This document shows positions 7,780 to 55,016 of a stretch of 64,000 nucleotides of DNA, piece after piece; the first letter of the stretch is position 1, and each line of letters begins with the position of its first letter. The notes beneath the pieces are model-generated. The model ran no database searches. It was not told the origin of the DNA and worked only from the letters and a program-made list of their open reading frames with translations. This DNA comes from an uncultured Acidobacteriaceae bacterium. GTDB lineage: Bacteria > Acidobacteriota > Terriglobia > Terriglobales > Acidobacteriaceae. The DNA is taken from positions 242,192-306,191 of the forward strand of contig CAWAWQ010000002.1 in the NCBI GenBank assembly GCA_963785825.1. The letters are read 5' to 3'. Both the position numbers and the translations under genes were made by a program.

Positions 7780-7794
7780 CCGGTAGCTTCCTTA

Positions 7795-7814: not shown

Positions 7815-8140
7815 CCCACAAGTGGTTATTTTTCCTTCCGGGCCGGTTCTTTAGCTGGCGGCACACATTGTTGGAAGAGTTTTCCAGCAGCCTTTGAAGT
7901 TGTGCCTGTTACAAATCCGTTTCGTTCGCATAACTGACATCGATGTGTTCAGAACCACGCTGTGGTTGCCGCCTACTGCGATGAGGTTGCTGACCGAGAT
8001 TTGGTGTGAGTACACTTTCGTGCCGACCTGTACCGAATTGACACACTATGTTGATAGTAGCTCAATTCTCGCTAGACTGATGTCACTCTGTACGGATACT
8101 CTTGCCATGGGATTTGTTGTTGCGAGGCCTTCCTTGCAAT

Positions 8141-8379
8141 TAGCCTGCATTATTCATGAAGACCTTGTGCCTTGAAGGGGCACGGCTTCAGCCGTGCCGT
8201 CCGCGTCATGGAAAGAACTGGGCTTCAGCCCCTGAGGGAGCTCGCACTTCGTGTCAACACCGAAATCCCTCCGTGGCTAAAGCCATCGATGATGAAATCG
8301 CATTTCGGCACGGCTAAAGCCGTGCCCTTTCAAAGACTGCTGCTTCACTTACCAAAGAGTTCATGAATAATGCAGGCTA
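8141..8379. mobile_element. Composite MITE-like element bounded by perfect 20-bp terminal inverted repeats
   Basis: TAGCCTGCATTATTCATGAA at 8141-8160 and its exact reverse complement at 8360-8379. The interior holds two head-to-head copies of hairpin modules (GGCACGGCTTCAGCCGTGCC, GGGCTTCAGCCC, GGCACGGCTAAAGCCGTGCC) related to the 14775, 28360 and 52548 elements. Confidence 0.7.
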
Positions 8380-8455
8380 GCTGTTCGCGAATCCCTTTCG
8401 ACGAATATATGCTCTACCTATTCAACGCTTGCTCCACAACATAAGCAGACTATCT

Positions 8456-9202
8456 ATGGCTTTAGACGCAAAGCTAACTCGAGTACTCAGCCAACTGACA
8501 GTTGTGGTTGTGTTGGGGTTACTATATTCACCCACCTGTGGTGCTCAGTCGACGATCCCCAAAGCCGTATTTGAGCATGACAGCAGCTTGTATTCTCAGT
8601 ATCACACGGACGTAAACATTGCTGCCGAGACATTGGCCGGCAGAGACGTAAAACTAAACATGTCGGATAACCCCCATCACAATGCGGTCAGCGATTTCGA
8701 AGAAACCCTGCCTAAGTATCCGGATCTCGATCTACGCAGGCTCGCTTGTCACTCCGACACGATTGTCGTCGGAAGGGTGATGGCATCGCAAACCGGCATT
8801 ATCTCCACGGGCGGCTTCTTGTACACGGACTCTTTGGTAAATGTTGAAGCCGTCATGAAGGGATCAGGCTTATCCGCAGGCGATAACATTGTCGTGAGCC
8901 GACCCGGCGGTGAAAGAACCGTTAACGGCCACTCGGTTATCGCCGAAGTGGGCGGATTCCCGATGCTCAAAGTGGGTACTCGATATCTTCTGTTCCTACA
9001 GAACCTATCAGAACCCAAGTCCTACCGAACTTTCAATGTCGGATCGTTTTCTTTAGAACCTAAACCGGCGGATCTATACGGAGACGCCTTACGAATTGAG
9101 AGCGCTCAGTCAGAAAACACCTTTTTGACCGAAGTGATGGCTGCAGTGACCGCCCCGTGCGCAGGAATTGGAGGAGCACTCGACAGTGGAGGCAGCCGAT
9201 GA
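8456..9202 (+). CDS. Hypothetical secreted protein
   Basis: The ATG at 8456 gives signal peptide MALDAKLTRVLSQLTVVVVLGLLYSPTCGAQS. The region is visibly AT-richer than its surroundings, and no domain was recognised. Confidence 0.5.
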   Translation: MALDAKLTRVLSQLTVVVVLGLLYSPTCGAQSTIPKAVFEHDSSLYSQYHTDVNIAAETLAGRDVKLNMSDNPHHNAVSDFEETLPKYPDLDLRRLACHSDTIVVGRVMASQTGIISTGGFLYTDSLVNVEAVMKGSGLSAGDNIVVSRPGGERTVNGHSVIAEVGGFPMLKVGTRYLLFLQNLSEPKSYRTFNVGSFSLEPKPADLYGDALRIESAQSENTFLTEVMAAVTAPCAGIGGALDSGGSR

Positions 9203-39303: not shown

Positions 39304-40737
39304 CTACTTCAGCAGGTCCTGCGCACTCTGGATCGCATAATCGAGCACGCGGCCCGGCAGCACGCCAAGATAAATGGTGGCGACGAGGCTGATCGCCAGC
39401 CCGACTCCCAGTCCTGCCGGGATGCGGGCCACGGGAGCTTCCACCCGTTCGTCGCGCATGTACATATAGACGATGACCCGCAGGTAATAGTAAGCAGCGA
39501 TGGCGCTGTTAATCACGCCGATGATGGTGAGTCCGACCAGGTTCGATTGCAGCGCTGCCGAGAAGACATAGAATTTGGCAAAGAACCCGCCGGTGACGGG
39601 GATGCCGATCAGCGATAGCAAAAAAATGGTGAGAATTGCGGCCAGCAACGGCGAACGACGTCCCAGCCCGGCGTAGTCGTCCAGGGTAACGTATTTCTCT
39701 TCGGCGGAGGCGAAGTGGCTGACTACGGCGAACGCTCCGACGTTCATTGCTGCATACGATGCTGCATAGAAGATCGCAGCAGAGATACCAACCTCCCTGG
39801 CTGCGGCGAAGGCGACCAGCAGATAACCGGCGTGCGCGATGGACGAGTATGCCAGCAGCCGTTTGACGTTCTGCTGCACCAGCGCGCCGATGTTGCCCAG
39901 CGTCATCGAAAGGACGGCGGAGACCCAGACTATCCAGAACCAGCCGGGCGCATCAGTGGCAAACAGTACTCGCAGCAGCACTGCGAATGCGGCCGCCTTG
40001 GGACCGCTGGACATCAGTGCCACAACCGGTGCAGGCGAACCCTCATAGACATCCGGAGTCCAGACATGGAAGGGAGCCGACCCCACCTTAAAGCCCAGAC
40101 CGACGAACATCAGTCCCACTGCGAGATAGGCCAGAACCGAAGGCTGTCCCTGAAGATACCGGGCAATCCCGTACACGTTGGTCGTTCCAGTCGCGCCGAA
40201 GATTAAGGCCACGCCGTACAAGAAGAACGCCGTGGCGAAGGAGCCCAGCAGAAAATATTTGAGCGAGGCCTCGGCGCTCTCGGCGGCTCGCCGCCGCATA
40301 CCGGCAAGTATGTAGGTGGAGATGGAGGAAATTTCCAGCGCGATGAAGACCAATACCAACTCGACGGCGGCCGACATCAGCATCATGCCGACGGTACCGA
40401 AGAGGATAAGGCCATAGTATTCGCCGGAGCGAATGCGCTGCACTTCGAGGTATTCGAATGAAGTCAGGATAACAACCAGTGCGACCAGCAGCACCACGAC
40501 GTGGAAGAAGACACTGAAAGTATCGACACTGATGGTGTTAAAGAATGCGCTGCCGTAGTAATTGGTCTGGTAAACAGTGGCAATGAGTCCGAGGAGCGTA
40601 CCAATGACGGCAATGATGCCCAGCGGCTTCTTGGGGCTTTGCTCAGGGAGCAACGGATCCACCAGCATCACAAGGATGCCGAAAACACTCAGTACCAGCT
40701 CAGGGAGGATGCGGATGTAGTCGACGCCGGGGATCAT
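39304..40737 (-). CDS. nuoN: NADH-quinone oxidoreductase subunit N
   Basis: 477 aa, polytopic, antiporter-like. ATGA overlap with the nuoM stop. Confidence 0.93.
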   Translation of the reverse strand: MIPGVDYIRILPELVLSVFGILVMLVDPLLPEQSPKKPLGIIAVIGTLLGLIATVYQTNYYGSAFFNTISVDTFSVFFHVVVLLVALVVILTSFEYLEVQRIRSGEYYGLILFGTVGMMLMSAAVELVLVFIALEISSISTYILAGMRRRAAESAEASLKYFLLGSFATAFFLYGVALIFGATGTTNVYGIARYLQGQPSVLAYLAVGLMFVGLGFKVGSAPFHVWTPDVYEGSPAPVVALMSSGPKAAAFAVLLRVLFATDAPGWFWIVWVSAVLSMTLGNIGALVQQNVKRLLAYSSIAHAGYLLVAFAAAREVGISAAIFYAASYAAMNVGAFAVVSHFASAEEKYVTLDDYAGLGRRSPLLAAILTIFLLSLIGIPVTGGFFAKFYVFSAALQSNLVGLTIIGVINSAIAAYYYLRVIVYMYMRDERVEAPVARIPAGLGVGLAISLVATIYLGVLPGRVLDYAIQSAQDLLK

Positions 40738-42467
40738 CGTCCAATCACCTCCGCCGATTTGTTCACAGCGGCAGATGACAGGTCGATAGTGGAAGCGCCG
40801 GGCTTCAGCGATGGGTTCGTATCGACGGTGAAAGCGCCGGGCTTTAGCCCGGCGAAAATAGGTCCTTTCAAAAACGGCTTTAGCCGCGGCGGACCGGGTC
40901 TAAAGCCCAAGTCAGATTGCGGCATTGCGGCACGGCTAAAGCCGTGCCCTTCCACCGGCAAGCTCGCAGCAGCCTGCAGCGGAGCCGAAAATTGCTTCAG
41001 CGCGGCAGCAACAGCGGGATCGATGGAGTGCAGCCACAGCATGGGGGCGACGCCCATCACCAGCGCCGCAATCGCAGTCGGCCACAAGGAAACCCGCTCG
41101 CGCGCATCCAGGTCGCGCAAAGACTGGTTCGCCGGATTCGTCACGTTCCCGTAGAAGACTCGCTGATACATCCAGAGCAGGTAGCAGGCGCTCCAGATCA
41201 CGCCGGTCGCGGCCAGAATTCCATAAAGTTGCTTCGCCTGGAATGCGCCACTCAGCACCATGAACTCGCCGATGAAGCCATTCAGCAAGGGCAGCCCAAC
41301 TGACGAGAGCATGATGAAGGCAAAGAACGTCGCATACACCGGCATGGGCGTCGCCAACCCGCCGTATTCCGTGATGTCGTAGGTGTGACGGCGTTCGTAA
41401 ACGATCCCCAGCAGCATGAACAGCGCGCCGGTGGAGACGCCGTGGCTCAGCATCTGGAACACGGCGCCGTCGACTCCGATCTGGGTGAAGCTGAAGATAC
41501 CGAGCACGACAAAACCCAGGTGGCTGACCGACGTGTAAGCGACGAGCCGTTTGATGTTCGGTTGGATCATCGCGACCAGCGAGCCATAGATGATGCCGAT
41601 GATGGCGAGCGCGATGATCCACGGGGCGTTGCGGCGCGCCTGCTCGGGAAAGAGTCCGAGATTGAAGCGCAGCAAACCGTAGGTGCCCATCTTCAGCAGC
41701 ACGCCGGCCAGCAGCACCGATCCCGCCGTCGGCGCTTCCACGTGGGCGTCAGGCAGCCAGGTGTGGACCGGGAACAGCGGCACCTTTACTGCGAAGGCGA
41801 CGAAGAATCCCAGGAACAGCCACAGGGCGGCCTGCCCGAATCCGCTGACTTGCCCGGTCTGGATCGCGCTTTGAATGGCGACGAAATCGAAGCTGCCGGT
41901 GCGCGCGTACAGCCAGATGATCGCCGCCAGCATAAACATCGAGGCAATCATGGTGTAGAGGAAAAACTTCACCGCCGCATAAATTTTTCGCCCATGGCCA
42001 TACATGCCGATCAGCAGCGCCATGGGAATCAGCGTGGCTTCCCAGAAGAAGTAGAAGAGGAAGAGATCGAGCGCCACGAAAACGCCGATCATCGCCGTCT
42101 CCAGCACCAGCATCAGGATGAAGAATTCCTTCACCCGGTCGCCGATCGATTTCCATGAGATCAGCACGCACAGCGGCACCAGGAACGTGGTCAGGATGAC
42201 CAGCCACAGCGAGATGCCATCCACGCCGAGGTGATAGTGGATATTCGGATGGGGAATCCAGGGAGCGTTCTCTTCGAACTGGAAGCCGTTCTGGCCGCGG
42301 ACGAAGTACCAGGGCAGGTGCAGGGAAGCGAGCAGCGTGACCAGGGAGACGGCCAGCGCGAAGTAGCGAATGTCACGATGGCGGCGGGGGAAAAACGCGA
42401 GCAGAATCGCGCCGGCAAGCGGGAGAAAAACAACGATGGTGAGGATGTTGTCGTTGATGAATTTCAT
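40734..42467 (-). CDS. nuoM: NADH-quinone oxidoreductase subunit M with repeat-derived C-terminal extension
   Basis: Starts [19 protein letters not shown] (ATGA overlap with the nuoL stop). The last ~75 codons translate MITE hairpin modules (EGHGFSRA..LKPGA..). Confidence 0.9.
   Translation of the reverse strand: MKFINDNILTIVVFLPLAGAILLAFFPRRHRDIRYFALAVSLVTLLASLHLPWYFVRGQNGFQFEENAPWIPHPNIHYHLGVDGISLWLVILTTFLVPLCVLISWKSIGDRVKEFFILMLVLETAMIGVFVALDLFLFYFFWEATLIPMALLIGMYGHGRKIYAAVKFFLYTMIASMFMLAAIIWLYARTGSFDFVAIQSAIQTGQVSGFGQAALWLFLGFFVAFAVKVPLFPVHTWLPDAHVEAPTAGSVLLAGVLLKMGTYGLLRFNLGLFPEQARRNAPWIIALAIIGIIYGSLVAMIQPNIKRLVAYTSVSHLGFVVLGIFSFTQIGVDGAVFQMLSHGVSTGALFMLLGIVYERRHTYDITEYGGLATPMPVYATFFAFIMLSSVGLPLLNGFIGEFMVLSGAFQAKQLYGILAATGVIWSACYLLWMYQRVFYGNVTNPANQSLRDLDARERVSLWPTAIAALVMGVAPMLWLHSIDPAVAAALKQFSAPLQAAASLPVEGHGFSRAAMPQSDLGFRPGPPRLKPFLKGPIFAGLKPGAFTVDTNPSLKPGASTIDLSSAAVNKSAEVIGR
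40790..40950. repeat. MITE-type hairpin modules embedded in the nuoM 3' coding region
   Basis: CGCCGGGCTTTAGCCCGGCG (40832-40851), cggctttagccg, and GGCACGGCTAAAGCCGTGCC (40928-40947). The last is identical to the module at 8312-8331. Confidence 0.75.
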
Positions 42468-44518
42468 CGCACGCCCCTCCACACCATGAAGGCGATGACG
42501 ACGGCCGCCCCTGCGGCAACCCATCCCGCATAGGAGCGAATATTGCCCGATTGCATGTGGCGCATCGCGTCCGAGGTCTCTTGTGCCCGAGCAGCGCCTC
42601 CGTCGACGGCGCCATCGATCAGCCCGCGATCAATGCCTTTCCAGAAGACGCTGGTCGAGAGCGCAATCAGGGGATGGATAATGACCGCACCATAGAGTTC
42701 GTCAACCTTGTACTTTTCCAGAACAAAGGTATAGAGGCCGCCCGCAGACTTGGCCATTCGCGCAGGCAACTCGGGCCGCTTGTAGTACAAGTACCAGGCG
42801 AGCAGGAATCCCAACACAGCAACTGCAACCGAGATCGCGCTGAACATCAGCTCCGTGCTGGGGCCTGCTGTCTCCGGCTCGGCCGCGTTGGCAGGTCCAG
42901 CATTTTCCGCGCCGACTGCATGGAACACCGGCGAGAGGAATGCGTCGAAGCGATCCGAGCCATGTAGAGAGTGCGGCACCCCGACCCAGCCGCCAGCTAA
43001 CGAGAGCAGGGCCAGGATCATCAGCGGCACCACCATCACCCATGGGCTTTCATGGGGGGCGCCGTGGCCGTGACTACCGCCTGCTGCGTGGGCGTCCTGC
43101 GCATCGTGAATTGCGCCGGTGCGGCCTGCATGCTGGGCATCGGTGTCGTGATTATGCCCTGCGGTCTCAGGGTTCGGCCCGCGGTAGTCGCCGAAGAAGG
43201 TCAGGAACCAGAGCCGGAACATGTAGAACGAGGTCATGCCGGCGGTGATCACGCCGATTAACCACAGAACGTGAGCACCGCTGCTCCAGGTCGACCACAG
43301 GATGCGGTCCTTGGAGAAAAACCCGGAGAACGGCGGTAGTCCCGAAATCGCGAACGTCGCAACCGTCATGCACCAGAAGGTGTAAGGAAGATACTTTCGC
43401 AGACCGCCCATGCGGCGCATGTCCTGTTCCCCGCCGAGGCCGTGAATCACCGACCCGGCGGCCAGAAACAACAGCCCCTTGAAGAAGGCATGGGTCATCA
43501 GGTGAAAGATGCCGCCGACGTAATCCGCGACGCCGCAGGCCATGAACATGTAGCCAAGCTGGGATATGGTCGAGTAGGCCAGCACCTTCTTAATGTCCGT
43601 CTGCACAATGCCGATGGAGGCGGCAAAGATCGCAGTCAGCGTCCCGATTATCGCCACCGCCATGAGTGCATCGGGGGCCCGGTGGAAGATGGGACTGGAG
43701 CGCGCCACCATGTAAACGCCTGCCGTCACCATGGTCGCGGCGTGGATCAGGGCGGAGACGGGCGTGGGGCCTTCCATAGCGTCGGGCAGCCAGACGTAAA
43801 GCGGAATCTGCGCCGACTTTCCGGTCGCGCCCACCAGCATCAGCAGGCCGATCGCGGTCAGTAAGCCAGCGCCGGCAGTTTCAATTGGATATTGGCTGAG
43901 GAGTTTCCACAGGCTGTCATACTGCAGTGTGCGGAAGTGCTTGATCAGCAGAAACAGCGCAATGAGGAAACCGAAATCGCCAACACGGTTGGTGATGAAT
44001 GCTTTCTTGCCCGCGTCGGCGGCGGTCTTCTTCAGGAACCAGAAGCCGATCAGCAGATACGACGCCAGTCCTACGCCTTCCCAGCCGACGAACATTAGCA
44101 AGTAGTTGTTCGCCAGCACCAGCGTCAGCATGAAGAACATGAAGATGTTCAAGTAGGCGAAGTAGCGGTAGTAGCCGCCTTCGTGCTCCATGTAACCGAC
44201 GGAGTAAATGTGGATGAGGAACCCGACGCCGGTTACCACCAGCATCATGATCAACGAAAGCTGGTCGAGATAGATGCCATACTCCGCCGAGAACGAGCCC
44301 GCCTTTAACCATGTGGCATAGCGCTCGATGTGCGGGATCTGCTCAGGCGTCAAGCCGGCGAACTGGGCCGCAACCCACAAGGCCATTCCGAACGACGCCG
44401 CCGTGGAGCCCAGCGCGATGGTGTTGACCAGCGCCTTGGGAAAGCGCTTGCCCAGCAAACCGTTGATCGCGGCGCCCGCCAGCGGGAGTAGCGGGATGAT
44501 CCAAAGGTGCATGCTCAT
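42464..44518 (-). CDS. nuoL: NADH-quinone oxidoreductase subunit L
   Basis: 684 aa with '[15 protein letters not shown]' and 'HESPW', and a long C-terminal amphipathic helix region. Confidence 0.93.
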
Positions 44519-44817
44519 AGCTTGAGGAGGTTCACACGATCCACGTTCAACGTTTCGCGCGTACGGAAAACGGCAATGATGATAGCCAGCCCTACCGCCG
44601 CTTCGGCGGCCGCGACCACCATCACGAAGAAAACGAAAATATGGCCGTCCAGCGATTTCAGCTGTGCCGCAAAGGCGACAAATGAAAGATTCACGCCATT
44701 CAACATCAACTCAATCGAAAGAAATATGGTTATGATATTGCGCTTGATCAGAAATCCGGCGACGCCACAGGCGAAGAGAATGGCGCTCAGCACCAGGTAA
44801 TAGGAAAGAGGGACCAT
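44515..44817 (-). CDS. nuoK: NADH-quinone oxidoreductase subunit K
   Basis: 100 aa with 3 TM helices, '[12 protein letters not shown]'. Confidence 0.93.
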
Positions 44818-45339
44818 TTATTCCTCCCTCCGCGCCAGCACCACCGCGCCCATGATCGCGACCAGGATCAGCACCGAGGTGACCTCGAAGGGCAGCAGGT
44901 AACCTCGGAACAACAGTTGCCCAACTGCTTGCGGGTTGCCGAACACGTTACCGCCGTTCATGACGGCCGGACCGCCGATGGCGATCCGATCAAGGCCGGT
45001 CAGATGGCTGACCACCGCGGCCGTGATGCCGAAACCTACGATCAGGGCTGGAACGCCGAGGATCATGGCGACGCGGCTACCGTGCGGCAGGCGCTCTTCT
45101 GCGCCGGCATTCAACAGCATGATGACGAAGACGAACAGCACCATCACCGCGCCAGCATAGACAATGACCTGCACGGCGGCGACAAACTCGGCCCCCAGCA
45201 GCAGATACAGCAAGGCCAGCGATCCCATCACCACGATCAGCGACAGCGCGCTGTTGATGGGGTGCTTCTGCACCAGGAGGTTAATGGCGCCTCCTACGCA
45301 GATCGCTCCGAAGATGAAGAACAGCACAAGATGCAACAT
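44818..45339 (-). CDS. nuoJ: NADH-quinone oxidoreductase subunit J
   Basis: 173 aa. 'VYAGAVMVLFVFVIMLL' is typical of NuoJ. Confidence 0.9.
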   Translation of the reverse strand: MLHLVLFFIFGAICVGGAINLLVQKHPINSALSLIVVMGSLALLYLLLGAEFVAAVQVIVYAGAVMVLFVFVIMLLNAGAEERLPHGSRVAMILGVPALIVGFGITAAVVSHLTGLDRIAIGGPAVMNGGNVFGNPQAVGQLLFRGYLLPFEVTSVLILVAIMGAVVLARREE

Positions 45340-45343
45340 GATT

Positions 45344-45441
45344 TTTTGGGCAGTTGGCAGTTAGCATGTGGCAGTTAGCCAAACAGCCGCGGTTGAACTG
45401 TGCTTTTCACCAACTGCTAAATGCTAAATGCCAACTGCTTA
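45344..45441. repeat. Heptamer-array inverted pair filling the whole nuoH-nuoJ intergenic gap
   Basis: The left arm gggcagttggcagttagcatgtggcagttagcc (45348-45380) faces caccaactgctaaatgctaaatgccaactgc (45408-45438). The right arm abuts the nuoH stop codon. Confidence 0.8.
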
Positions 45442-46473
45442 TCGGATCGCCACCACGAAACTCGTCACCACAATATTGGCAATCGCCAGCGGCAGCAAAA
45501 ACTTCCAACCGAAGGCCATGAGCTGGTCGTAGCGGAAGCGCGGCAACGTGCCGCGCACCCAGATATACAGAAACATGAACGCGAAGACGCGCAAGCCAAA
45601 CCAGAACACCGGCAACAATGACTGCAAAAGCGGTGGCCCGAAGGTTGGGCCAGTCCAGCCTCCCAAAAACAGCACCGACGCGAGGCACGCAACCGTGACC
45701 ATGTTGGCATACTCGGCCATAAAGAACATGGCAAACTTCATCGAGCTGTACTCGGTGTGATAGCCGGCGACCAACTCCGTCTCGGCTTCCGGCAAATCGA
45801 AGGGAATGCGGTTCGTCTCGGCATAAGCCGCCATGATGTAAATAAAGAAGGCGACGAACTGTCCCTTGAACAAGTTCCATTTGGGAATAAAGCCAAACCA
45901 GGTGCCCGCCTGCTGGTTGACGATGTCACTAAGACTGAAGCTGCCGGTATAGATCAGAACGCCGATGAGAGACAATCCCAGAGCGACTTCGTAACTTATC
46001 ATCTGTGCGGACGCGCGCAGGCCGCCGAGCATCGAATACTTGCTGTTGGAAGACCAGCCCGCCAAGGCCACGCCGTAGACCCCGACTGAGGTGACACCCA
46101 GAATCACCAGCAGCCCGATATTGACGTCGGCGATTTGCAGGGGGGTGGAGATGCTGCCTATCTTGATCCAAGGACCGATGGGGATGACTGCGATGGAAGT
46201 GAGCGCCGTGGTCACCGCAATGATCGGCGCCAGCAGGTATAAGGGCTTATTAACGTAAGGCGGTGTGAGGTCTTCCTTAAAGATGAACTTTAAGCCATCG
46301 GCCAGCGGCTGCAGCAAGCCGAAGGGTCCCACACGGGTCGGTCCCCAGCGATTCTGCATGTGACCGACGACCTTACGCTCCAGCCAAACGGTGTAGGCAA
46401 CGGCGGTGAGCAGAACAAAGACCGCAATCAGGATCTTGACGATCGAAACCAGGATGTACGTTCCAATGCCCAT
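45439..46473 (-). CDS. nuoH: NADH-quinone oxidoreductase subunit H
   Basis: 344 aa with '[31 protein letters not shown]'. Confidence 0.93.
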
Positions 46474-46495
46474 TAGGTATTAGTTCTCAGTGAAT

Positions 46496-46520
46496 CGCTA
46501 TTCGCTGTTCGCCTTTTGCC
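46496..46520. repeat. Heptamer array CGCTATT CGCTGTT CGCCTTT
   Basis: Lies 23 nt upstream of the nuoH start. It is nearly identical to the first units of the array at 49086 upstream of nuoG. Confidence 0.7.
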
Positions 46521-46546
46521 AGAGCCGACTCCAACTACTGTCAGAT

Positions 46547-46595
46547 TGTCATCCTGAGCGAAGGCGCGCTTTGCGCGCCGGAGTTGAAGGACCCC
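46547..46595 (+). repeat. MITE-like hairpin element, 'GTCATCCTGAGC...GAAGGACCCC' family
   Basis: Sequence is tgtcatcctgagcgaaggcgcgctttgcgcgccggagttgaaggacccc. Confidence 0.7.
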
Positions 46596-46597
46596 TA

Positions 46598-46686
46598 CCG
46601 CAAACGAAAACCTCAAACGCAAACCGGAAAAACTGGAAATGCGGAACTCTGTAATCCCTGATCCCCGGCCCCTGACCCCTGGTTTT
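46598..46686. repeat. Period-7 arrays (..AAAC/GGAAA units, then AATCCCT GATCCCC GGCCCCT GACCCCT)
   Basis: Read directly. The array ends at the nuoG stop codon (46686), and the CCCCT units match the array at 1564-1598. Confidence 0.65.
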
Positions 46687-49079
46687 CACTCCATTCTTGC
46701 CGCCGGATCGTAATCCGCCGCGCTCTCCAGGTCCGACGGACCGGTACTGTAGCGCTCCATTACGGTGCTCAAGGTCTCGGAGAATCCTCCCAGCGTTCCC
46801 GACGTAAACAGCGTGTCATTGGACGGCATGATGAGTTGCGGATCTCCCGCTCCGGTCGCGCCCGTAATCTGCACCAGTTGGGTATGCTCATCGCCGCCGG
46901 AGAGTAGTCCCAGTCGCGAGATGTCGTAACCCGGTACCAGCCGTTGTATTTCGTCGAGCATAGCCGTGGGATCGTACGGACTCATTTTCGGCTCGAGGTT
47001 GTGACTCGCCAGCCAAACAGCATGGCGGTCTGACTCGCCCGACTGCGCCCCGCGCGTCTGTCCCATGTCGGCGCGCGTTCCTCGGCCGCCGAAGGGCACC
47101 AGCTTGTGCACGTCGTATCCCATGGCGGCGGCGATCCGGATGATGCATTCGAAATCGTTGCGCACCCCGGCAAACTCTCCCGCCTTCTTCAACATCTGCA
47201 GGTCACCGCAGGTGTTGGTAAAGGTGCCGCTCTTTTCGTAGGCATTAGCGACGGGCAATACGACGTCGGCGATGCGCGCCGTCTCAGTCAGGAACATGTC
47301 CTGCACAATGACGAAGCTCTTCGAGAGAGCAAAAGGATCTATGTTGTAGCGTGCAACGGGATTGGATCCGACGACATAAAGCGCCTTCAACTTGCCTTCT
47401 TTTGCGGCGTCCATCATCTGCAGCAAGTTAAGGCCGGGTTGTTTTGGAATCTCGTCCAGCCATTCTTCGTGGAAGCTGGTGGCGCTCGATACCGGTGCAT
47501 AACCCGGCAGCATGTCGGGATAAAGTCCCATATCGGCAGCGCCGCGCGAATTGGCGTAATCGCCCAGGCAGATAAACTTCGCGCTTTGGGCTAGCCCGAA
47601 ATCGACCAGCGCTTTGACGCTATCGCCGCGCAGCTCGGCGCCGAAGATGATGACCAAGTCCTTCTCGTTCTTCAGCGCGTCGCGCATTTGGGTAAGCGCG
47701 TCACGATCGAGCTCTGCGGAAAGCACGGCATCGGCTGCACTGTCGTTACCGGCAAGAAATTGCGCGAAGTTCCCCTCGGAGCCGGGCGCAATTTGCGCAA
47801 ACGCCGCCGCCTGGCGGCGCAGTTTGATGGGCGAGGAATTCACCACATAGAGCTTGGCGCGATGCAGGCGAACGTTGCTGCGGATCTGCCACGCCAGCAG
47901 CGGATGCTGATTGGTCGCATCATTGCCGATCAGCAGGATTGTCGGCGCATTGAATACATCGCGCATGGACGCAGTGGCCTTCGACTTGCCGGCCAGCGCA
48001 GAAGCAAACGCGGAGAAATCCGCGGTGCGGTGGTGGTCGATGTTGTTCGTCGCCAGCACCAGACGCGCGAATTTCTGCAGTAGATAGTTTTCTTCGTTGC
48101 TGGCGTGGTTGGAACCGATCACGCCCACCGCGCTTGGGCCATCGCTGGTCAGCACGTCCTGGAAGTTTTTCGCGATCAACTCGAAGGCCTGCTCCCAGGT
48201 CGCTGAAACAAATTTGCCGTCGCGCTTGATCAGCGGTTGTGTCAGGCGGTCCGGGTGGTTGGCAAAATCGAAGGCATAGCGGCCCTTGATGCAAAGAAAG
48301 TCACCGTTGATGCCGCTCTTATCGCGATTGTCGCCGCGCACAATCTGCATGCCGGTATCAGCCCGGCGCACGCCGAGCGTCGTTTTGCAGCCGTCTCCGC
48401 AGTGGGTGCAGACGGTGCCCACATGCTTCATCTCCCAGGGCCGCGTCTTGTAACGGTAGGCCCCGGAGGTGAGCGCGCCGACCGGGCAGATGTCGATGCA
48501 CATGCCGCACTCTTCGCACTCCAGGTGATCTTCTTTGTTGGGCGCGATCACCGACCCGACATTGCGGTTCTGGATACCGAGCGCCCACACATCCATACCT
48601 TCGCCGCAGACGCGAATGCAGCGATAGCAGAGAATGCAGCGCGGACGATCGAAGTACACCACCGGCGACCATTGCTGCTCCTCGCGGTGGTTCTTCAGGT
48701 CCATGAACTTCGACTCGGCGGCGCCGTATTTGAAGGTCATGTCCTGCAGTTCGCACTCGCCTCCGGCGTCGCAGACCGGGCAATCGAGAGGGTGGTTGGC
48801 GAGCAGCAGCTCAAGCATCGACTTGCGCGCCTGCTTGATCTTCTCGCTCTCGGTGGTGACCACCATGCCCTCGGCAACCGGCGTGGTGCACGCCGTCTGC
48901 AGCTTGGGCATCTTTTCGATTTCCACCAGGCACATGCGGCAGGCGCCCTGCAAGGATAGGTTGGGGTAATAGCAGAAAGATGGCACCTCGATCCCGGTGC
49001 TCTTGCAGGCTTCGATGAGCAGCGTTCCCGCGGGAACGGTGAGTTTCTTGCCGTCGACAGTGAGAGTTACGTCAGCCAT
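46686..49079 (-). CDS. nuoG: NADH-quinone oxidoreductase subunit G
   Basis: 797 aa. Has an N-terminal 2Fe-2S 'CYYPNLSLQGACRMC', 4Fe-4S Cys clusters and a molybdopterin-oxidoreductase-like domain. Confidence 0.9.
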   Translation of the reverse strand: MADVTLTVDGKKLTVPAGTLLIEACKSTGIEVPSFCYYPNLSLQGACRMCLVEIEKMPKLQTACTTPVAEGMVVTTESEKIKQARKSMLELLLANHPLDCPVCDAGGECELQDMTFKYGAAESKFMDLKNHREEQQWSPVVYFDRPRCILCYRCIRVCGEGMDVWALGIQNRNVGSVIAPNKEDHLECEECGMCIDICPVGALTSGAYRYKTRPWEMKHVGTVCTHCGDGCKTTLGVRRADTGMQIVRGDNRDKSGINGDFLCIKGRYAFDFANHPDRLTQPLIKRDGKFVSATWEQAFELIAKNFQDVLTSDGPSAVGVIGSNHASNEENYLLQKFARLVLATNNIDHHRTADFSAFASALAGKSKATASMRDVFNAPTILLIGNDATNQHPLLAWQIRSNVRLHRAKLYVVNSSPIKLRRQAAAFAQIAPGSEGNFAQFLAGNDSAADAVLSAELDRDALTQMRDALKNEKDLVIIFGAELRGDSVKALVDFGLAQSAKFICLGDYANSRGAADMGLYPDMLPGYAPVSSATSFHEEWLDEIPKQPGLNLLQMMDAAKEGKLKALYVVGSNPVARYNIDPFALSKSFVIVQDMFLTETARIADVVLPVANAYEKSGTFTNTCGDLQMLKKAGEFAGVRNDFECIIRIAAAMGYDVHKLVPFGGRGTRADMGQTRGAQSGESDRHAVWLASHNLEPKMSPYDPTAMLDEIQRLVPGYDISRLGLLSGGDEHTQLVQITGATGAGDPQLIMPSNDTLFTSGTLGGFSETLSTVMERYSTGPSDLESAADYDPAARME

Positions 49080-49085
49080 AAAAAC

Positions 49086-49134
49086 CGCTATTCGCTGTTC
49101 GCCTTTCGCTATTGGCTTTTAGCTCTTAGCAACA
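49086..49134. repeat. Heptamer array CGCTATT CGCTGTT CGCCTTT CGCTATT GGCTTTT AGCTCTT AGCAACA
   Basis: Starts 7 nt upstream of the nuoG start codon. Confidence 0.75.
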
Positions 49135-49147
49135 AAACCAAAACTTC

Positions 49148-49200
49148 TGTCATCCTGAGCCAGCCAGCACGCCGTTCGCGCTGGCGAGTCGAAGGACCCC
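49148..49200 (+). repeat. MITE-like hairpin element, 'GTCATCCTGAGC...GAAGGACCCC' family
   Basis: Sequence is tgtcatcctgagccagccagcacgccgttcgcgctggcgagtcgaaggacccc. Confidence 0.7.
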
Positions 49201-49234
49201 TATACGGTTCGGCTCAGTGACTCGCAACATAAGG

Positions 49235-49388
49235 TTGTCATCTCGACCGAGGACTTTAGTCCGAGCGGAGAGACCCGCATTTCGTGCCGTCCCTACGGGA
49301 CTCGGGCCTTATTTATCCGCGTACCCAGCACTCCGCTTCGCTCCGCGCCGGGCTATCATGTCGCCGTCCCACCGAGCGGGACTCTATT
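49235..49388 (+). repeat. Composite repeat: 'GTCATCTCGACCG...GAGAGACCCGCATTTCGTGCCGTCC' unit plus GCCGTCCC..GGGACTC hairpin modules
   Basis: The first part parallels 51958-52015. The second part carries two related hairpins (gtgccgtccctacgggactcgg and cgccgtcccaccgagcgggactc). Confidence 0.6.
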
Positions 49389-49476
49389 CTTGAGTCGCAA
49401 TCGTTTTTCGCATCCCGAAATCTCACCGCACCTCAATCCCACTGGGGAGGCGCCGCGCCCGACTTTGACTGGCTTC

Positions 49477-49527
49477 TGGTCACTGATTGTCACTGACGCG
49501 TCACTAGCCACTATCCAGTGACCACTG
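49477..49527. repeat. Irregular GTCACT(G/A) short tandem repeats at the nuoF stop
   Basis: Sequence is tggtcactgattgtcactgacgcgtcactagccactatccagtgaccactg. It overlaps the nuoF 3' end. Confidence 0.5.
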
Positions 49528-50830
49528 CTTCTTCCAATTCCGCCGTTTTCTCGTACGGACATGGCTTGCCGTCGAGGTGGTCCTCGAACTCCTGCCGGTA
49601 CTTCTGTATGTAGGAAATGATCGGCATCGCCGCCGCATCACCCAGAGGACAGAAAGTTCGTCCCAGCATGTTCTCCGCCAGGTACTTCAGATTGTCGATG
49701 TCTTTCATCACCCCGCCGCCCGAATGCATGCGGGTCAGCGTCTTCTTCATCCAGTCGGTGCCTTCGCGGCAGGGAATGCACCAGCCGCAGCTCTCGTGCT
49801 GATAAAACTGCGTGACCCGAAGCGCGAATTTGACGATGCACATCTGATCGTCGATCACGATCACGCCGCCGGAGCCCAGCATCGAGCCGGCCTTCAGCAC
49901 CGAGTCAAAGTCCATGGCAACGTCGATCTCGTCCGGCGTGAGAATCTGCACCGACGACCCGCCAGGGACGACACCTTTCAGGGTTTTCCCCTTCACCATG
50001 CCGCCGGAGACGTCATAAATCATCTTCTTTAGGTTGTAGCCCATGGGCAGTTCGTAAACGCCCGGTTTCTCCAGTTCGCCGCTCATACAAAACAGGCGCG
50101 TTCCTCCATTTCGCGGCGTTCCCAGGCTGGCGAACCACTCGCCGCCGCCGAGAATGATGTGCGGCACGCTGGCCAGCGTTTCGGCATTGTTGATGACGGT
50201 CGGTCCACCCCACAGTCCGACGACAGCCGGGAAGGGAGGCCGAATACGCGGCACGCCGCGCTTGCCTTCGAGCGACTCCATGAGCGCCGACTCTTCACCT
50301 ACCTCGTAGGCGCCGGCGCCGGAGTGGGTGAAGATGTCGAGATCGACGCCCGAGCCGAAGATGTTCTTGCCGATGAAGCCGCGGGCGTAGGCCTCGGCGA
50401 CCGCCTTCTCCATGATCTCCAGTAGGTAACGGTACTCACCGCGCAGATAGATGTAGCCGGATTTTGCGCCCACCGCCAGCGCTGCAATCATTACGCCTTC
50501 GATCACCGCGTGCGGATCATGCTCGAAAATGAGCCGGTCTTTGCAGGTGCCGGGCTCGCTTTCGTCGCCATTGCACAGCACGTACTTCGGCTTGGGCGAC
50601 TGCTTGGGAACAAACGACCACTTCATCCCGGTGGGGAAGCCCGCGCCGCCCCGACCGCGCAGGTTCGACGCTTTCACCTCGTTGATGATGGCGTCTGGCT
50701 GCATGGTGAGCGCCTTCTGCACCGCCTTGTAGCCTTCCAGTTCCAGATAGCGGTCAAGGTTGGTCGCACCCTTACCAAACCGCTTGGAGACGACCTTTAC
50801 TTCATCGGGATGGGAAACGAGATAAGCCAT
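49511..50830 (-). CDS. nuoF: NADH-quinone oxidoreductase subunit F
   Basis: Contains 'GRGGAGFPTGMKW', 'CNGDESEPGTCKDR' and 'ESCGWCIPCREG'. The likely start is the ATG at 50830 (MAYLVSHPDE), since the track start is a TTG inside the repeat array. Confidence 0.93.
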   Translation of the reverse strand: MAYLVSHPDEVKVVSKRFGKGATNLDRYLELEGYKAVQKALTMQPDAIINEVKASNLRGRGGAGFPTGMKWSFVPKQSPKPKYVLCNGDESEPGTCKDRLIFEHDPHAVIEGVMIAALAVGAKSGYIYLRGEYRYLLEIMEKAVAEAYARGFIGKNIFGSGVDLDIFTHSGAGAYEVGEESALMESLEGKRGVPRIRPPFPAVVGLWGGPTVINNAETLASVPHIILGGGEWFASLGTPRNGGTRLFCMSGELEKPGVYELPMGYNLKKMIYDVSGGMVKGKTLKGVVPGGSSVQILTPDEIDVAMDFDSVLKAGSMLGSGGVIVIDDQMCIVKFALRVTQFYQHESCGWCIPCREGTDWMKKTLTRMHSGGGVMKDIDNLKYLAENMLGRTFCPLGDAAAMPIISYIQKYRQEFEDHLDGKPCPYEKTAELEEAVVTG

Positions 50831-50834
50831 AAAA

Positions 50835-50925
50835 GCAACTAGCAATTAGCGCTTGGCAATTGGCACTTGGCAATTAGCATTTGGCAATTAGCATTTGGCA
50901 CTTAGCATTTGGCACTTAGCCAAAG
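50835..50925. repeat. Heptamer array, ~13 units of RGCAMTT (AGCAATT/GGCACTT/AGCATTT)
   Basis: Sequence is AGCAACTAGCAATTAGCGCTTGGCAATTGGCACTTGGCAATTAGCATTTGGCAATTAGCATTTGGCACTTAGCATTTGGCACTTAGCC. It starts 5 nt upstream of the nuoF ATG. Confidence 0.85.
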
Positions 50926-51300
50926 ACGGATTTAAATCACACCTCCCAGTGTGGCGGTGGCAATTTCGATGTCTTCCCGGCGAAACAGGTGCGGTAGCTC
51001 TCTTACCACAATGGATTCCAAACTTACCCTGCCTCGCTGCTCTAAGCGGTAGCCATTCTCTCCTGCTAGTCAACAAACGATCCTGAATGAATCTGACAAG
51101 CGAGGTTAGCTCGGATTCGTGCCTCTGCCAATTTGCCAATCGTGCAGCCGCTCCGCCCCCCAGAACATCTAGCGTGTCGCGCCGACAGGCCTCCATTAAC
51201 GAGACCAGGCGCGCTAAGTCCCCCGATTCGGTGGTCCCCGTCATGCGGTCTTCGCCTTTTGCGTCCACATCTGTCGCTCAAGTGCTTCGCCGCTAAAAGC

Positions 51301-51370
51301 CCAACTGCTAACTGCCAAATGCCAAGTGCCAAGTGCCAAGTGCCAAGTGCCAGTTGCTATTGCTGCTCCT
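51301..51370. repeat. Heptamer array in opposite orientation (CCAAGTG x4 and variants)
   Basis: Sequence is CCAACTGCTAACTGCCAAATGCCAAGTGCCAAGTGCCAAGTGCCAAGTGCCAGTTGCTATTGC. It is the reverse-complement type of the 50835 array and overlaps the nuoE stop. Confidence 0.85.
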
Positions 51371-51839
51371 TCTTCTTCAGCCCCTCAATCAATTCGTCAA
51401 TCTTCTCCGGCGTCAGGTTCTCGACAAACTCGTAGTTCAGCATCATCGCCGGCGCCCAGGAGCAGGCTCCAATACATTCAACCTCTTCCAGATAAACCAG
51501 CCCATCCGCAGTGGTTTGCTTATTGTCTACCCCGAGCTTCTTCTTGCAGTGCTCAAAGATATCGTCCGCGCCACGCAAAAGGCAGCTCACGTTGGTGCAA
51601 ACCTGGAAGTTGTACTTCCCGATCGGGTGGGTGCGCAGCATCGAGTAGTAGCTGATGACGTTGCGCACTTCCAGGTCCGACAGCTCGATGCGGGATGCGA
51701 TCTCGTGAATCGCTTCCTCCGTCAGTGCCCCGATCTCGTCCTGGATGTAGAGCAGCATGGGAACGAGCACCGAGCGTTTGGTCGGATAATGCGTGACCAT
51801 GGTGGCGAAACGCTGTTCGAGTTGATCGGAGAATTTCAT
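51357..51839 (-). CDS. nuoE: NADH-quinone oxidoreductase subunit E
   Basis: Thioredoxin-like 2Fe-2S motifs 'QVCTNVSCLLRG' and 'EVECIGACSWAP'. The likely start is the ATG at 51839 (MKFSDQLEQ). Confidence 0.9.
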   Translation of the reverse strand: MKFSDQLEQRFATMVTHYPTKRSVLVPMLLYIQDEIGALTEEAIHEIASRIELSDLEVRNVISYYSMLRTHPIGKYNFQVCTNVSCLLRGADDIFEHCKKKLGVDNKQTTADGLVYLEEVECIGACSWAPAMMLNYEFVENLTPEKIDELIEGLKKKEQQ

Positions 51840-51845
51840 GAAATC

Positions 51846-51872
51846 AGCAGTTAGCAATTAGCAATTAGCCAA
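51846..51872. repeat. Short heptamer array (GCAGTTAGCAATTAGCAATTAGCC)
   Basis: Starts 7 nt upstream of the nuoE ATG. Confidence 0.65.
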
Positions 51873-51883
51873 ACCCAAAACCG

Positions 51884-51936
51884 GCGTCATCGTAAGTCAT
51901 GCGTGCGGCAGTTGCGCGTTGAAGTCGAAGGACCCC
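51884..51936 (+). repeat. MITE-like hairpin element, degenerate 'GTCATC...GAAGGACCCC' family
   Basis: Sequence is gcgtcatcgtaagtcatgcgtgcggcagttgcgcgttgaagtcgaaggacccc. Confidence 0.6.
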
Positions 51937-51957
51937 CCTACTTCGCCAAAACCCCAA

Positions 51958-52015
51958 GTGTCATCCCGACCGGCGGCTTCAGCCGGAGCGGAGGGACCTG
52001 CAGTTCGTGCCGTCC
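51958..52015 (+). repeat. MITE-like element 'GTCATCCCGACCG..CGGAGCGGAGGGACCTGCAGTTCGTGCCGTCC'
   Basis: Parallels 49235-49290. The internal hairpin is ccggcggcttcagccgg. Confidence 0.6.
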
Positions 52016-52032
52016 AGCAGAACTGCCTCTAC

Positions 52033-52530
52033 TCAAAATTCGCGCTTGGGTGCGGTCTGCTCTGGACCCAGCCGCCCCGCGAAAATTTCGGCGCGGGAAT
52101 AGTTCTCGGCTCGTATGGGCGATCCCGCCATCCGCCGCACCATGGCAATCTGCCCGATATGCGACAAAGCATCCGCCAGTGCGCCCTGAAACAGCCTCTC
52201 CGCCGCACACGCCAGTTGCTGCGAAGCCAAACAGTCGTCCAGCTCTTGCAGCGCCGCGTAAAACCGCCGCACCTCATCGCTCCACGGCAGCGGAGTCGAG
52301 TCATGCCACTCTTCCTTGCCGCGCGCCATCGATAGCGCCCAGTCCATCAGGTCCCCGATATGCGCCAGGATCTGTCCCGCCGTGCGCGTCGTCTCCGCAG
52401 GATGGAAATCGCCGAACTCAGGCGGCGCGCCGCGCAGCGCCTTGCCGCCGCGGTAGGCAATGGTCGCGAGCACATGGCGCAGGAATCCGCGCTTCTCGTC
52501 CGCGATGACGTTTTGTGTACACGTTGCCAT
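52033..52530 (-). CDS. DinB-superfamily (DUF664/YfiT-like) protein
   Basis: 165 aa predicted as a four-helix bundle with 'ILAHIGDLMDWAL' and 'ALSHIGQIAMVRRMAG' His motifs. Located between nuoD and nuoE. Confidence 0.7.
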   Translation of the reverse strand: MATCTQNVIADEKRGFLRHVLATIAYRGGKALRGAPPEFGDFHPAETTRTAGQILAHIGDLMDWALSMARGKEEWHDSTPLPWSDEVRRFYAALQELDDCLASQQLACAAERLFQGALADALSHIGQIAMVRRMAGSPIRAENYSRAEIFAGRLGPEQTAPKREF

Positions 52531-52547
52531 AATCGTCGCTTTAGAGA

Positions 52548-52673
52548 TCTGCCGTCCCTAGTCTGATTAAATACGACCGAAGTCCCTCAGGGGTTAAAGC
52601 CCAGGCTCATTTCAGGCACTTACGGACGGCCTGAAGGCTGTCCCCTTCAAACTTCGACCTGATCAGAGCTTTC
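52548..52673 (+). mobile_element. MITE-like element (TCTGATTAAGT family), uninterrupted copy
   Basis: Sequence is gtctgattaaatacgaccgaagtccctcaggggttaaagcccaggctcatttcaggcacttacggacggcctgaaggctgtccccttcaaacttcgacctgatcagagc. Confidence 0.75.
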
Positions 52674-52860
52674 CTAACACTTAGTGCCGGCCAGCGCTTT
52701 GATTCAACCGCAGCCTACAGCGACATGATTACCGCTGCCGCCGCTCTGCGGCCCTCCCGTTACTTCGCCACAGCGGGGGCTTACGCCCCCGCCTAAACCC
52801 ATCCCGCCGCGTTGCGGCTGGGCATTGCCCAAAGAAGCTGTAGCTAAAGAAACTATCTCT

Positions 52861-52903
52861 CAGTTGCTAGTCCGTTACTGCTAATTGCTAACTGCTAATT
52901 GCC
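52861..52903. repeat. Heptamer array (CAGTTGC TAGTCCG TTACTGC TAATTGC TAACTGC TAATTGC)
   Basis: Ends exactly at the nuoD stop codon (52904-52906). Confidence 0.7.
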
Positions 52904-54109
52904 TCACCGGTCGCAATCCCCCAGCACAATATCGATGCTGCCAATGGCGGCGACCACGTCCGCGATCAGGCGGCCTTCGCACATCTTGCGCAGTGTCTGC
53001 AGATTCGCGAATGACGGCGAGCGCATATGCACGCGGTACGGCTTCGCCGTGCCGTCGCTCACCACGTAGTAGCCCATCTCGCCGCGGGGCGACTCGATCG
53101 GCATGTACACCTCGCCTTCAGGTACGGTAAAGCCTTCGGTCACGATCTTAAAGTGATAGATGAGCGCCTCCATCTGCGTCTTCATCTTCTCGCGATCGGG
53201 GAGCACAACTTTGGGCGCATCGGCTTTCACGCGCCCTTCGGGCATGCCTTCCAGCGCCTGCATGGCGATCTTCTGCGACTCGCGCAGCTCGGCCACTCGG
53301 ATCATGTATCGTGCGTACACGTCGCCAGCGTTGGAGATGGGCACGTTAAACTTGAAATTCTCGTAGCCGCTATACGGCAGATCGCGGCGGAGATCGACAT
53401 CGATGCCGCTGCCGCGCAGCGTGGGCCCGGTGGCGCACAGCGCAATCGCATCTTCGCCCGAAATGTAAGCCACGCCCTTGGTGCGCTTCATCCAAATCGG
53501 ATTGCTGGTCAGCAGGCTCTCGTATTCATCGACATTGGCGGGAAAGCGGTCGAGAAACCTCTTGACCCGATCGAAGAAGCCCAGAGGCGGTTCCAGCGCC
53601 AGGCCGCCAATGCGGAAGTACGAAGTCATCATGCGCTGACCGCTGACCGCTTCGAACAGCCGCAGCACATCTTCACGCTCGCGGAAGCAGTACAGGAAGA
53701 CGGTCATGGCGCCAATGTCCAGGGCATGTGTGCCCAGCCACACCAGGTGCGAGTTGATGCGGGTCAGCTCGTTCAGCATCACCCGAATCCACTGCGCACG
53801 CGGCGGAATCTCCAGCCCCAGCAACTTCTCTACTGCCAGGCAGTAGGCGAGGTTGTTGGTCATGGGGCAGAGATAGTCGATACGGTCGGTGAGTGGCACG
53901 ACCTGCTGGTAGAACTTGGCTTCGCAGGTTTTCTCGATTCCGGTGTGCAGATACCCAATGTCGGGCATCAGGCGCACGATGGTCTCGCCATCGATCTCCA
54001 GCAGCAGCCGCAGGACACCATGGGTCGAGGGATGCTGCGGGCCCATGTTCAGGACCATCGTCTTGTCTTGCGACGGATCCAGCACCGGAGTGGGAGTCAT
54101 GTGAGCCAT
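52904..54109 (-). CDS. nuoD: NADH-quinone oxidoreductase subunit D
   Basis: 'VLNMGPQHPSTHGVLRL' and the C-terminal 'IDIVLGDCDR'. The ATG at 54109 lies 2 nt after the nuoC stop. Confidence 0.93.
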   Translation of the reverse strand: MAHMTPTPVLDPSQDKTMVLNMGPQHPSTHGVLRLLLEIDGETIVRLMPDIGYLHTGIEKTCEAKFYQQVVPLTDRIDYLCPMTNNLAYCLAVEKLLGLEIPPRAQWIRVMLNELTRINSHLVWLGTHALDIGAMTVFLYCFREREDVLRLFEAVSGQRMMTSYFRIGGLALEPPLGFFDRVKRFLDRFPANVDEYESLLTSNPIWMKRTKGVAYISGEDAIALCATGPTLRGSGIDVDLRRDLPYSGYENFKFNVPISNAGDVYARYMIRVAELRESQKIAMQALEGMPEGRVKADAPKVVLPDREKMKTQMEALIYHFKIVTEGFTVPEGEVYMPIESPRGEMGYYVVSDGTAKPYRVHMRSPSFANLQTLRKMCEGRLIADVVAAIGSIDIVLGDCDR

Positions 54110-54111
54110 GA

Positions 54112-54609
54112 TTAGCGATAGCCCTCGACGGGATAATCCTTGCGCAGCGGATGGCCTTCCCAATCGTCGGGCATCATGATGCGCGTCAGGTTGGGATGCT
54201 GGTCGAAGCGAACGCCGAACAGATCAAAAACTTCGCGTTCAAAGAAGTCGGCGCCCGGCCAGATAGGAGTCAGCGAATCGATATTGGGGTCTTCTCCCTG
54301 CAGGCGTACCTTCAACCGCAGGTACCTCTTATTGGGAATTGAGAAAAGCTGATAGACGACCTCGAAACGCGGCTCGCGTGGATACCAATCGACACAAGTG
54401 ATATCGGCCAGGGCGTTGTATTGCAGCTGCGGATCGTTTCTGAGCGCGAGGCACGCGTCGCGCAGAGCGATACGATCGACCCATATTGTGAGTTCGTTGC
54501 GATCGAACTTGGCGGCTGTGACGGCCACCGCCTTGTGGGCCAGCAACGCGGCCACTTCGGGGCGGTCCTTCAGTTGCTCGATATCAGTGATAGCCGGTCG
54601 AAGTCCCAT
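54112..54609 (-). CDS. nuoC: NADH-quinone oxidoreductase subunit C
   Basis: 165 aa with 'WPGADFFEREVFDLFGVRFDQHPNLTRIMMPDDWEGHPLRKDY'. The start overlaps the nuoA stop (TGATG). Confidence 0.9.
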   Translation of the reverse strand: MGLRPAITDIEQLKDRPEVAALLAHKAVAVTAAKFDRNELTIWVDRIALRDACLALRNDPQLQYNALADITCVDWYPREPRFEVVYQLFSIPNKRYLRLKVRLQGEDPNIDSLTPIWPGADFFEREVFDLFGVRFDQHPNLTRIMMPDDWEGHPLRKDYPVEGYR

Positions 54610-55016
54610 CAGAGCTTCTCCGCCTTGCCCTGCTTGTTCCAGTCGAGCACGCCCTTTTTCCAGACGTACCAGAAACCGGCGAGCAGGATGCCGATATAAA
54701 TCAACATTTCCCAAAACCAGAACATGCCTTGGCCGGTGGATTTCAGATTGCGCTGCACAATGGCCCAAGGATAGAGGAAGACGGCTTCGACATCGAACAG
54801 GATGAACAGCATCCCCACCAGGTAGAACTTCACCGTGAAGCGCTGGCGAGCGTTGCCGACCGGCTCCATGCCGCACTCATAGGGCGACATCTTGGAGGAA
54901 TTGTATTTATGCTGGCCGATAAAGTAGGAGAGCAGCACGATGGCGCAAGCGATGCCGCCGGCGACCAGAATGTGAATCAACAACGGCAAATATCGGGCGA
55001 AGTAGAAATCCGGCAT
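54609..55016 (-). CDS. nuoA: NADH-quinone oxidoreductase subunit A
   Basis: 135 aa from the ATG at 55016, with 'SPYECGMEP' and 'FILFDVEAVFLYPWA'. Confidence 0.9.
   Translation of the reverse strand: MPDFYFARYLPLLIHILVAGGIACAIVLLSYFIGQHKYNSSKMSPYECGMEPVGNARQRFTVKFYLVGMLFILFDVEAVFLYPWAIVQRNLKSTGQGMFWFWEMLIYIGILLAGFWYVWKKGVLDWNKQGKAEKL

Follow-up and report, generated by a model that had tools for sequence, protein, structure and literature searches.

The 64,000-nt window analysed here (G000:C2:242192-306191) comes from the genome of a soil acidobacterium of Terriglobales-like affiliation (G000; 5.07 Mb in 7 contigs, 99.8% complete) and carries on its minus strand, at positions 39304-55016, a nuo operon without nuoB and nuoI. 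We read it, with a probability of about 0.9, as the core operon, with 12 genes, of an ordinary complex I (14-subunit NADH:quinone oxidoreductase) to which NuoB and NuoI are supplied from unlinked single genes. According to this reading the operon would supply 12 subunits, NuoB and NuoI would each be produced from a single-gene transcription unit of its own at another chromosomal site, and these two proteins would associate in trans with the products of the operon. The genome codes for the full set of 14 core subunits (NuoA-N), 12 of them in the operon and NuoB and NuoI elsewhere, and the resulting enzyme is most likely an ordinary complex I.

Assignment of the open reading frames (ORFs) to Pfam families gave the order nuoA-C-D-(orf)-E-(orf)-F-G-H-J-K-L-M-N, the same gene content as in a first-pass annotation that was made from the letters of this DNA. 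The nuoA gene (54609..55016, 135 aa; PF00507, E 1.8e-36) ends in a TGA at 54611-54609 that shares one nucleotide with the ATG of nuoC at 54609-54607 (TGATG), leaving no room for nuoB between them. NuoC (54112..54609, 165 aa) matched PF00329 with an E-value of 3.4e-46 and TIGR01961 with 145.7 bits against a cut-off of 122.45. At the site where nuoI usually lies, nuoH (45439..46473; PF00146, E 8e-127) and nuoJ (44818..45339; PF00499) are separated by a spacer at 45340..45438. A six-frame search with PF01058 found no NuoB signal in the window, and the sole NuoI-like signal there in a six-frame search with TIGR01971 was a 24.7-bit match to the ferredoxin-like part that NuoG ordinarily has. Because of this, a NuoB or NuoI domain hidden in a fusion was rejected; the first-pass annotation had also concluded from the normal sizes of NuoA and NuoC that there is no hidden fusion.

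Both missing genes were found by these six-frame searches with PF01058 and TIGR01971, which covered the whole genome, and this bears out the earlier supposition that they are encoded elsewhere. There are two genuine nuoB genes, both of them orphans outside the window, and three nuoI genes, of which two are orphans and one lies in a second nuo cluster. The orphans that match the window operon are a nuoB at G000:C6:543497-544108 (minus strand; TIGR01957, 235.7 bits against a cut-off of 142.7) and a nuoI at G000:C4:208566-209081 (minus strand; NF004537, 173.2 bits against 163, and TIGR01971, 131.9 against 113). The longest ORF of the latter extends to 209165; translation likely starts at Met29, to judge from the alignment of orthologues, which gives a protein of 171 aa. 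The ligands for cluster N2 are intact in NuoB (CCAIE, GAC..GG and GCPP), and so are both CxxCxxCxxxCP motifs for clusters N6a and N6b in the C4 NuoI.

The remaining copies are a second orphan nuoB at G000:C6:624154-624762 (minus strand), which also scores above the TIGRFAM cut-off, and a third nuoI at G000:C6:223797-224372 (minus strand), a paralogue of the NuoI of the second cluster. These two last NuoI proteins are assigned to NuoI in NCBIfam and score just below the NuoI cut-off. Both NuoB proteins carry the N2 ligands and all three NuoI proteins carry both 4Fe-4S motifs, the second of which ends in CS instead of CP in the in-cluster copy. Downstream of the C6:223797 nuoI, at a distance of 24 nt, lies a 487-aa ORF without a family match; together the two genes span G000:C6:222310-224372 (minus strand; locus L096:6311-8373). 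The orphans are surrounded by unrelated genes: a Zn-dependent dehydrogenase and a Uma2-like gene; a beta-lactamase-family gene, DUF92 and Ku; and beta-lactamase/NamZ, DinB and PIN genes. No conserved orphan neighbourhood was found within the family, where the one shared element was the Zn-dependent dehydrogenase upstream of nuoB, common to G000 and G047.

The pairing of these orphans with the window operon was derived from their phylogeny and from co-occurrence. The orphan genes of four relatives (G047, G014, G031 and G059) are orthologues of the C6:543497 nuoB (74-81% protein identity) and of the C4:208566 nuoI (66-82%). Within the family, identity is 74-81% for NuoB, 76-82% for NuoI and 72-81% for NuoD, which puts the conservation of the orphans on a par with that of the best operon genes. 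In the NuoB tree the orphans of G000, G047, G031, G059 and G014 form one clade (SH-like approximate likelihood ratio support, SH-aLRT, 89), placed inside the in-operon NuoB of the nearest clusters that contain nuoB. Likewise, a single clade (90/89) comprises all NuoI orphans accompanying the I-less clusters of this branch, and within it the class-level orphans group together (99/90). The topology of the NuoD tree is the same, and the congruence of the three trees indicates that the orphans encode subunits proper to this operon, passed on by vertical descent and not borrowed from a second cluster. On these phylogenetic grounds the C6:543497 nuoB and the C4:208566 nuoI would both belong to the window operon.

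The survey of the layout in the lineage covered 80 related loci, 4 further genomes of the same family or class and another 20 genomes of the class, drawn from 9 families. The closest NuoD relatives (79-93% identity) are in metagenome-assembled genomes (MAGs) labelled Korobacteraceae, Acidobacteriaceae, Sulfotelmatobacter or Terriglobales. In 80/80 related loci nuoA adjoins nuoC and nuoH adjoins nuoJ, with no match to NuoB or NuoI, and the same layout occurred in 24/24 other genomes of the class, including 20/20 from the 9 families. The first-pass annotation had called the selective absence of the two Fe-S subunits striking and had proposed a comparison of gene order in relatives. The absence is real but, for this organism, not striking; it proved to be the documented standard of the lineage, class-wide, an outcome that the first-pass annotation had itself named as refuting its observation. 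Elsewhere in the phylum, 17 sampled Acidobacteriota genomes have the canonical order A-B-C-D-E-F-G-H-I-J-K-L-M-N.

The wide occurrence of the layout bears directly on the idea that the operon is a remnant, decaying or without function, or encodes an unusual complex without clusters N2 and N6a/b. What speaks for this idea is that the operon lacks NuoB and NuoI, neither of which is dispensable in any complex I studied. All 12 operon genes are, however, intact and score far above the family cut-offs; the layout is kept in more than 100 genomes and loci, and intact cognate orphans are always present. Two relatives whose genomes are 100% complete (G047 and G014) each contain a single nuo cluster, which has the window layout, together with a single nuoB and a single nuoI, all three on separate contigs, and in them the operon is the only complex I. 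In the cultured Acidobacterium capsulatum (A. capsulatum) the corresponding operon is highly transcribed, at about 500-1700 transcripts per million (TPM) at the highest oxygen level for the NADH dehydrogenase I (NDH-I) operon ACP_0296-0284 (PMC11636273, Table S3). We therefore regard a remnant or an enzyme of this kind, which the first-pass annotation had also considered, as almost out of the question.

The second nuo cluster, the existence of which the first-pass annotation had suggested as something to look for, was found at G000:C2:216726-228275 (plus strand; locus L097:4727-16276), 14 kb from the start of the window. Its order is A-C-D-H-I-J-K-L-M-N; it contains its own nuoI and is without nuoEFG and nuoB. 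Except for the missing nuoB it agrees with the 11-subunit type of complex I (A-B-C-D-H-I-J-K-L-M-N, no nuoEFG). The counterparts of this cluster in G037, G044, G017 and G035 keep nuoB between nuoA and nuoC; the 11-subunit cluster of G000 has thus also lost its own nuoB. The orphan NuoB at C6:624154 shares 59-70% identity with the NuoB encoded inside the 11-subunit clusters of the same four genomes, which marks it as the probable detached partner of the second cluster. The nuoA-nuoC gap of this cluster codes for a Pro/Ala-rich N-terminal extension of NuoC of about 130 aa. A nuoB remnant in the gap was considered and rejected, as none of 41 NuoB sequences gave a tblastn match there with an E-value below 0.4. 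In this cluster nuoA has the sequence GATAAT at a distance of 6 nt upstream of its ATG and may be transcribed without a leader. Neither cluster of G000 is of the '2M' type with two nuoM genes, as each has a single nuoM.

The proximity of two clusters that both lack nuoB raises the alternative, also proposed in the first-pass annotation, of a shared pool, with NuoB and NuoI serving both clusters and the genes having been moved out so that one copy feeds two enzymes. Apart from the common absence of nuoB, the evidence contradicts this. G047 and G014 have one cluster only and yet carry the same orphans, and the second cluster of G000 has its own nuoI. Furthermore, the two orphan nuoB genes differ in ancestry, one grouping with the orphans of 14-subunit operons and the other resembling the in-operon NuoB of 11-subunit clusters, so that each G000 cluster has a phylogenetically matching NuoB. 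Sharing between the clusters is therefore highly improbable, and we retain the reading in which the window operon has a dedicated NuoB and NuoI encoded in trans.

Further arrangements occur in other acidobacterial genomes. Clusters that contain nuoB and lack nuoI are present in G033, G016, G009, G044 and G010. Those of G044 and G010 are also without nuoF and nuoG, and here nuoI lies upstream of nuoA at a distance of 1.4 kb (G044) or 7.7 kb (G010). The tree topologies indicate that nuoI left the operon before nuoB. The exit of nuoI would have taken place in an ancestor shared with several other acidobacterial families and that of nuoB at a later point, at the root of the class that includes G000, and the split would have been inherited since. 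In the NuoD tree the I-less state requires 2 changes and the B-less state 3 changes. A single clade of all I-less clusters was rejected in this tree (delta lnL 147, p-AU 4e-10) by the approximately unbiased (AU) test, for which the group of I-less clusters was named after the tree had been seen.

A separate group (G037, G001, G020 and G053) has the order A-C-D-E-F-G-H-J-K-L-N. Judging from the trees, nuoB and nuoI also left independently in a second acidobacterial lineage, in which the two genes are adjacent (G037) or lie 3.4 kb (G053) or 9.4 kb (G001) apart. In G053 the genes between nuoB and nuoI encode an NDUFAF7/MidA-family methyltransferase, an electron transfer flavoprotein:quinone oxidoreductase (ETF-QO) and a Rieske protein. 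At this locus (L176, G053:C8:71000-84193; positions 4758-9000, plus strand) nuoB, nuoI and the three genes between them are co-directional within 4 kb and away from the main nuo operon.

Of the 10 orphan orthologues (nuoB at L093, L149, L151, L153 and L147; nuoI at L095, L140, L141, L142 and L138), 8 have a TAnnnT box 6-10 nt ahead of the start codon and a ninth has a near match, compared with 3.8% of random ATGs; the count is weakened by the selection of some orthologue start codons after inspection. The boxes suggest that each orphan may have its own promoter right at the gene, possibly giving leaderless mRNAs. Scans with the sigma-70 consensus and for terminators around the orphans gave no useful consensus promoter or terminator. 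A ATTGCGCG-like word found upstream in G000 and G047 was discarded since it did not occur beyond chance. The dependence of the box count on chosen starts is one of several points that weigh against our reading of the operon and its partners. Another is that no motif common to the upstream regions of nuoA, nuoB and nuoI was found beyond chance in five genomes; the best 9-mer was present in 7 of the 15 sequences (nuoA, orphan nuoB and orphan nuoI), the same as in shuffled sequences. With two NuoB and three NuoI in G000, the pairing of orphans and clusters relies on phylogeny and co-occurrence only. Finally, expression of the orphans and their presence in the complex are, for this organism, inferred.

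The repeated departure of the same two genes could also mean that selection, and not neutral rearrangement, expelled both Fe-S genes, with separate and possibly leaderless transcription tuning the Fe-S-dependent steps of assembly independently. The number of changes given above, the rejection of a single I-less clade and the -10-like boxes immediately upstream of the orphan start codons are in line with this, as is the second lineage, which keeps nuoB and nuoI together or close to each other and in which the G053 pair flanks the methyltransferase, ETF-QO and Rieske genes. On the other hand, no regulatory motif emerged from the upstream comparison, the orphan neighbourhoods are not conserved within the family, the independent events are few, and the group for the AU test was defined with the tree in view. 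We consider selection unlikely as the cause. In its broadest form the proposal would be that precisely these two genes left complex I operons of Acidobacteriota several times over in independent events, nuoI on at least two occasions and nuoB on at least three (once in the second cluster of G000), under selection for separate, promoter-proximal and possibly leaderless expression of subunits with an Fe-S loading step that is limiting for quinone-module assembly; this too we put forward as a doubtful conjecture.

The other genes of the operon, all on the minus strand, have the features expected of complex I. The nuoD ORF spans 52904..54163 when read from a TTG codon and scored 579 bits with TIGR01962 against a cut-off of 459. 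Many relatives align with it from residue 18-19 onward only, and the true start is most likely the ATG at 54109 and not the TTG at 54163. The NADH-oxidising module is present with its FMN and Fe-S domains in nuoE (51357..51857; PF01257, E 5.8e-49), nuoF (49511..50845; PF01512 and PF10589) and nuoG (46686..49079; PF13510, PF10588, PF22117 and PF00384). These are followed, after nuoH and nuoJ, by nuoK (44515..44817; PF00420), nuoL (42464..44518; PF00361, PF00662 and PF01010), nuoM (40734..42524; PF00361 and PF01059) and nuoN (39304..40737; PF00361).

Two additional ORFs interrupt the series. The first, of 165 aa, lies between nuoD and nuoE at 52033..52530 and matched no family at E<=0.001, the nearest being a sub-threshold likeness to DinB_2 (E 0.0029); a counterpart is found at the same site in loci L013 (64% identity) and L017 (58%). 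The second, of 126 aa, between nuoE and nuoF at 50888..51268, is a doubtful ORF that had no family match and no tblastn match in the 80 related loci. Some spacers of the operon are unusually long, namely 373 nt between nuoD and the first extra ORF, 431 nt between nuoF and nuoG and 212 nt between nuoG and nuoH. The spacer between nuoH and nuoJ is a single long imperfect hairpin of heptamer-like units, with a minimum free energy of −45.5 kcal/mol and a z-score of −5.85, a value that none of 200 shuffled sequences reached. The hairpin had been recognized in the first-pass annotation, which gave its length as 98 nt instead of the 99 nt found here. Elsewhere in the genome only three short partial copies occur. 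Because the distance between nuoH and nuoJ ranges among relatives from 7 to about 520 nt, the hairpin is not a conserved feature of the site.

A further set of related genes was noticed at G000:C3:382284-387287 (minus strand), where NuoE-, NuoF- and NuoG-like genes adjoin genes for a small subunit of the NuoB family and for a ferredoxin-like protein. Rather than a part of complex I, they probably make up a soluble NAD-linked module of the hydrogenase type.

The layout without nuoB and nuoI is already known from published work. Hausmann et al. (bioRxiv 10.1101/197269; PMC6018796) reported that all their acidobacterial peatland MAGs (SbA1-7) carry nuoACDHJKLMN operons, one with nuoEFG. For A. 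capsulatum, Table S3 of PMC11636273 lists nuoA as ACP_0296, nuoC as 0295, nuoD as 0294, nuoE as 0292, and further on nuoH as 0289 and nuoJ as 0288, and leaves the entries for nuoB and nuoI blank. In the peatland MAGs and A. capsulatum the gene order is that of the window, nuoA adjoining nuoC and nuoH adjoining nuoJ, and there is one operon per genome with nuoEFG. The unlisted ACP_0293 lies between nuoD and nuoE, at the place taken in the window by the ORF at 52033-52530. Nothing essential differs from the window; the two papers mention the order in passing, with no pairing of orphans and operons and no order of events. No further paper using such a nuo gene string for Acidobacteria was found in the library searched, and general surveys of complex I do not treat this layout. 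New in this analysis are the matching of every orphan to an operon, the sequence in which the two genes left, the recurrence of the same two exits and the loss of nuoB from the second cluster. A. capsulatum also has a 2M cluster, with the order A-B-C-D-I-H-J (PMC11636273), as do the family relatives G031 and G059 (two nuoM, order A-B-C-D-I-H-J-K-L-M-M-N); the '2M' type is that of Chadwick et al. 2018, as cited in PMC11636273.

Compared with the canonical 14-gene operon of Escherichia coli (nuoA-N) and Thermus thermophilus (nqo1-14), G000 has the same 14 subunits and the same order for the 12 genes that are still together. The canonical operon includes nuoB and nuoI, whereas G000 has both as single, probably monocistronic genes on other contigs. 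In the NDH-1 complex of cyanobacteria and plastids the genes are distributed over separate transcription units (ndhC-K-J, ndhA-I-G-E, ndhH, ndhB and ndhD/F). The likeness to G000 is that of a complex-I-type enzyme built from several unlinked transcription units. In NDH-1, however, ndhK (the homologue of nuoB) and ndhI stay in small operons with structural neighbours, while in G000 only nuoB and nuoI are detached and the NADH module is present. The window operon also differs from the 11-subunit complex I, represented in G000 by the second cluster, in having nuoEFG, and from the 2M type in having a single nuoM.

A nuo operon of Terriglobia without nuoB and nuoI should not be annotated as a defective or exotic enzyme, and the unlinked genes can fill the two blank entries in published tables such as that of A. 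capsulatum. That the same two Fe-S genes have left repeatedly and independently is a modest curiosity in evolutionary terms. The recurrence could serve to ask whether the expression of Fe-S subunits is separately controlled during the assembly of bacterial complex I and, if selection did drive the exits, gene order would be a readout of an assembly or regulatory constraint.

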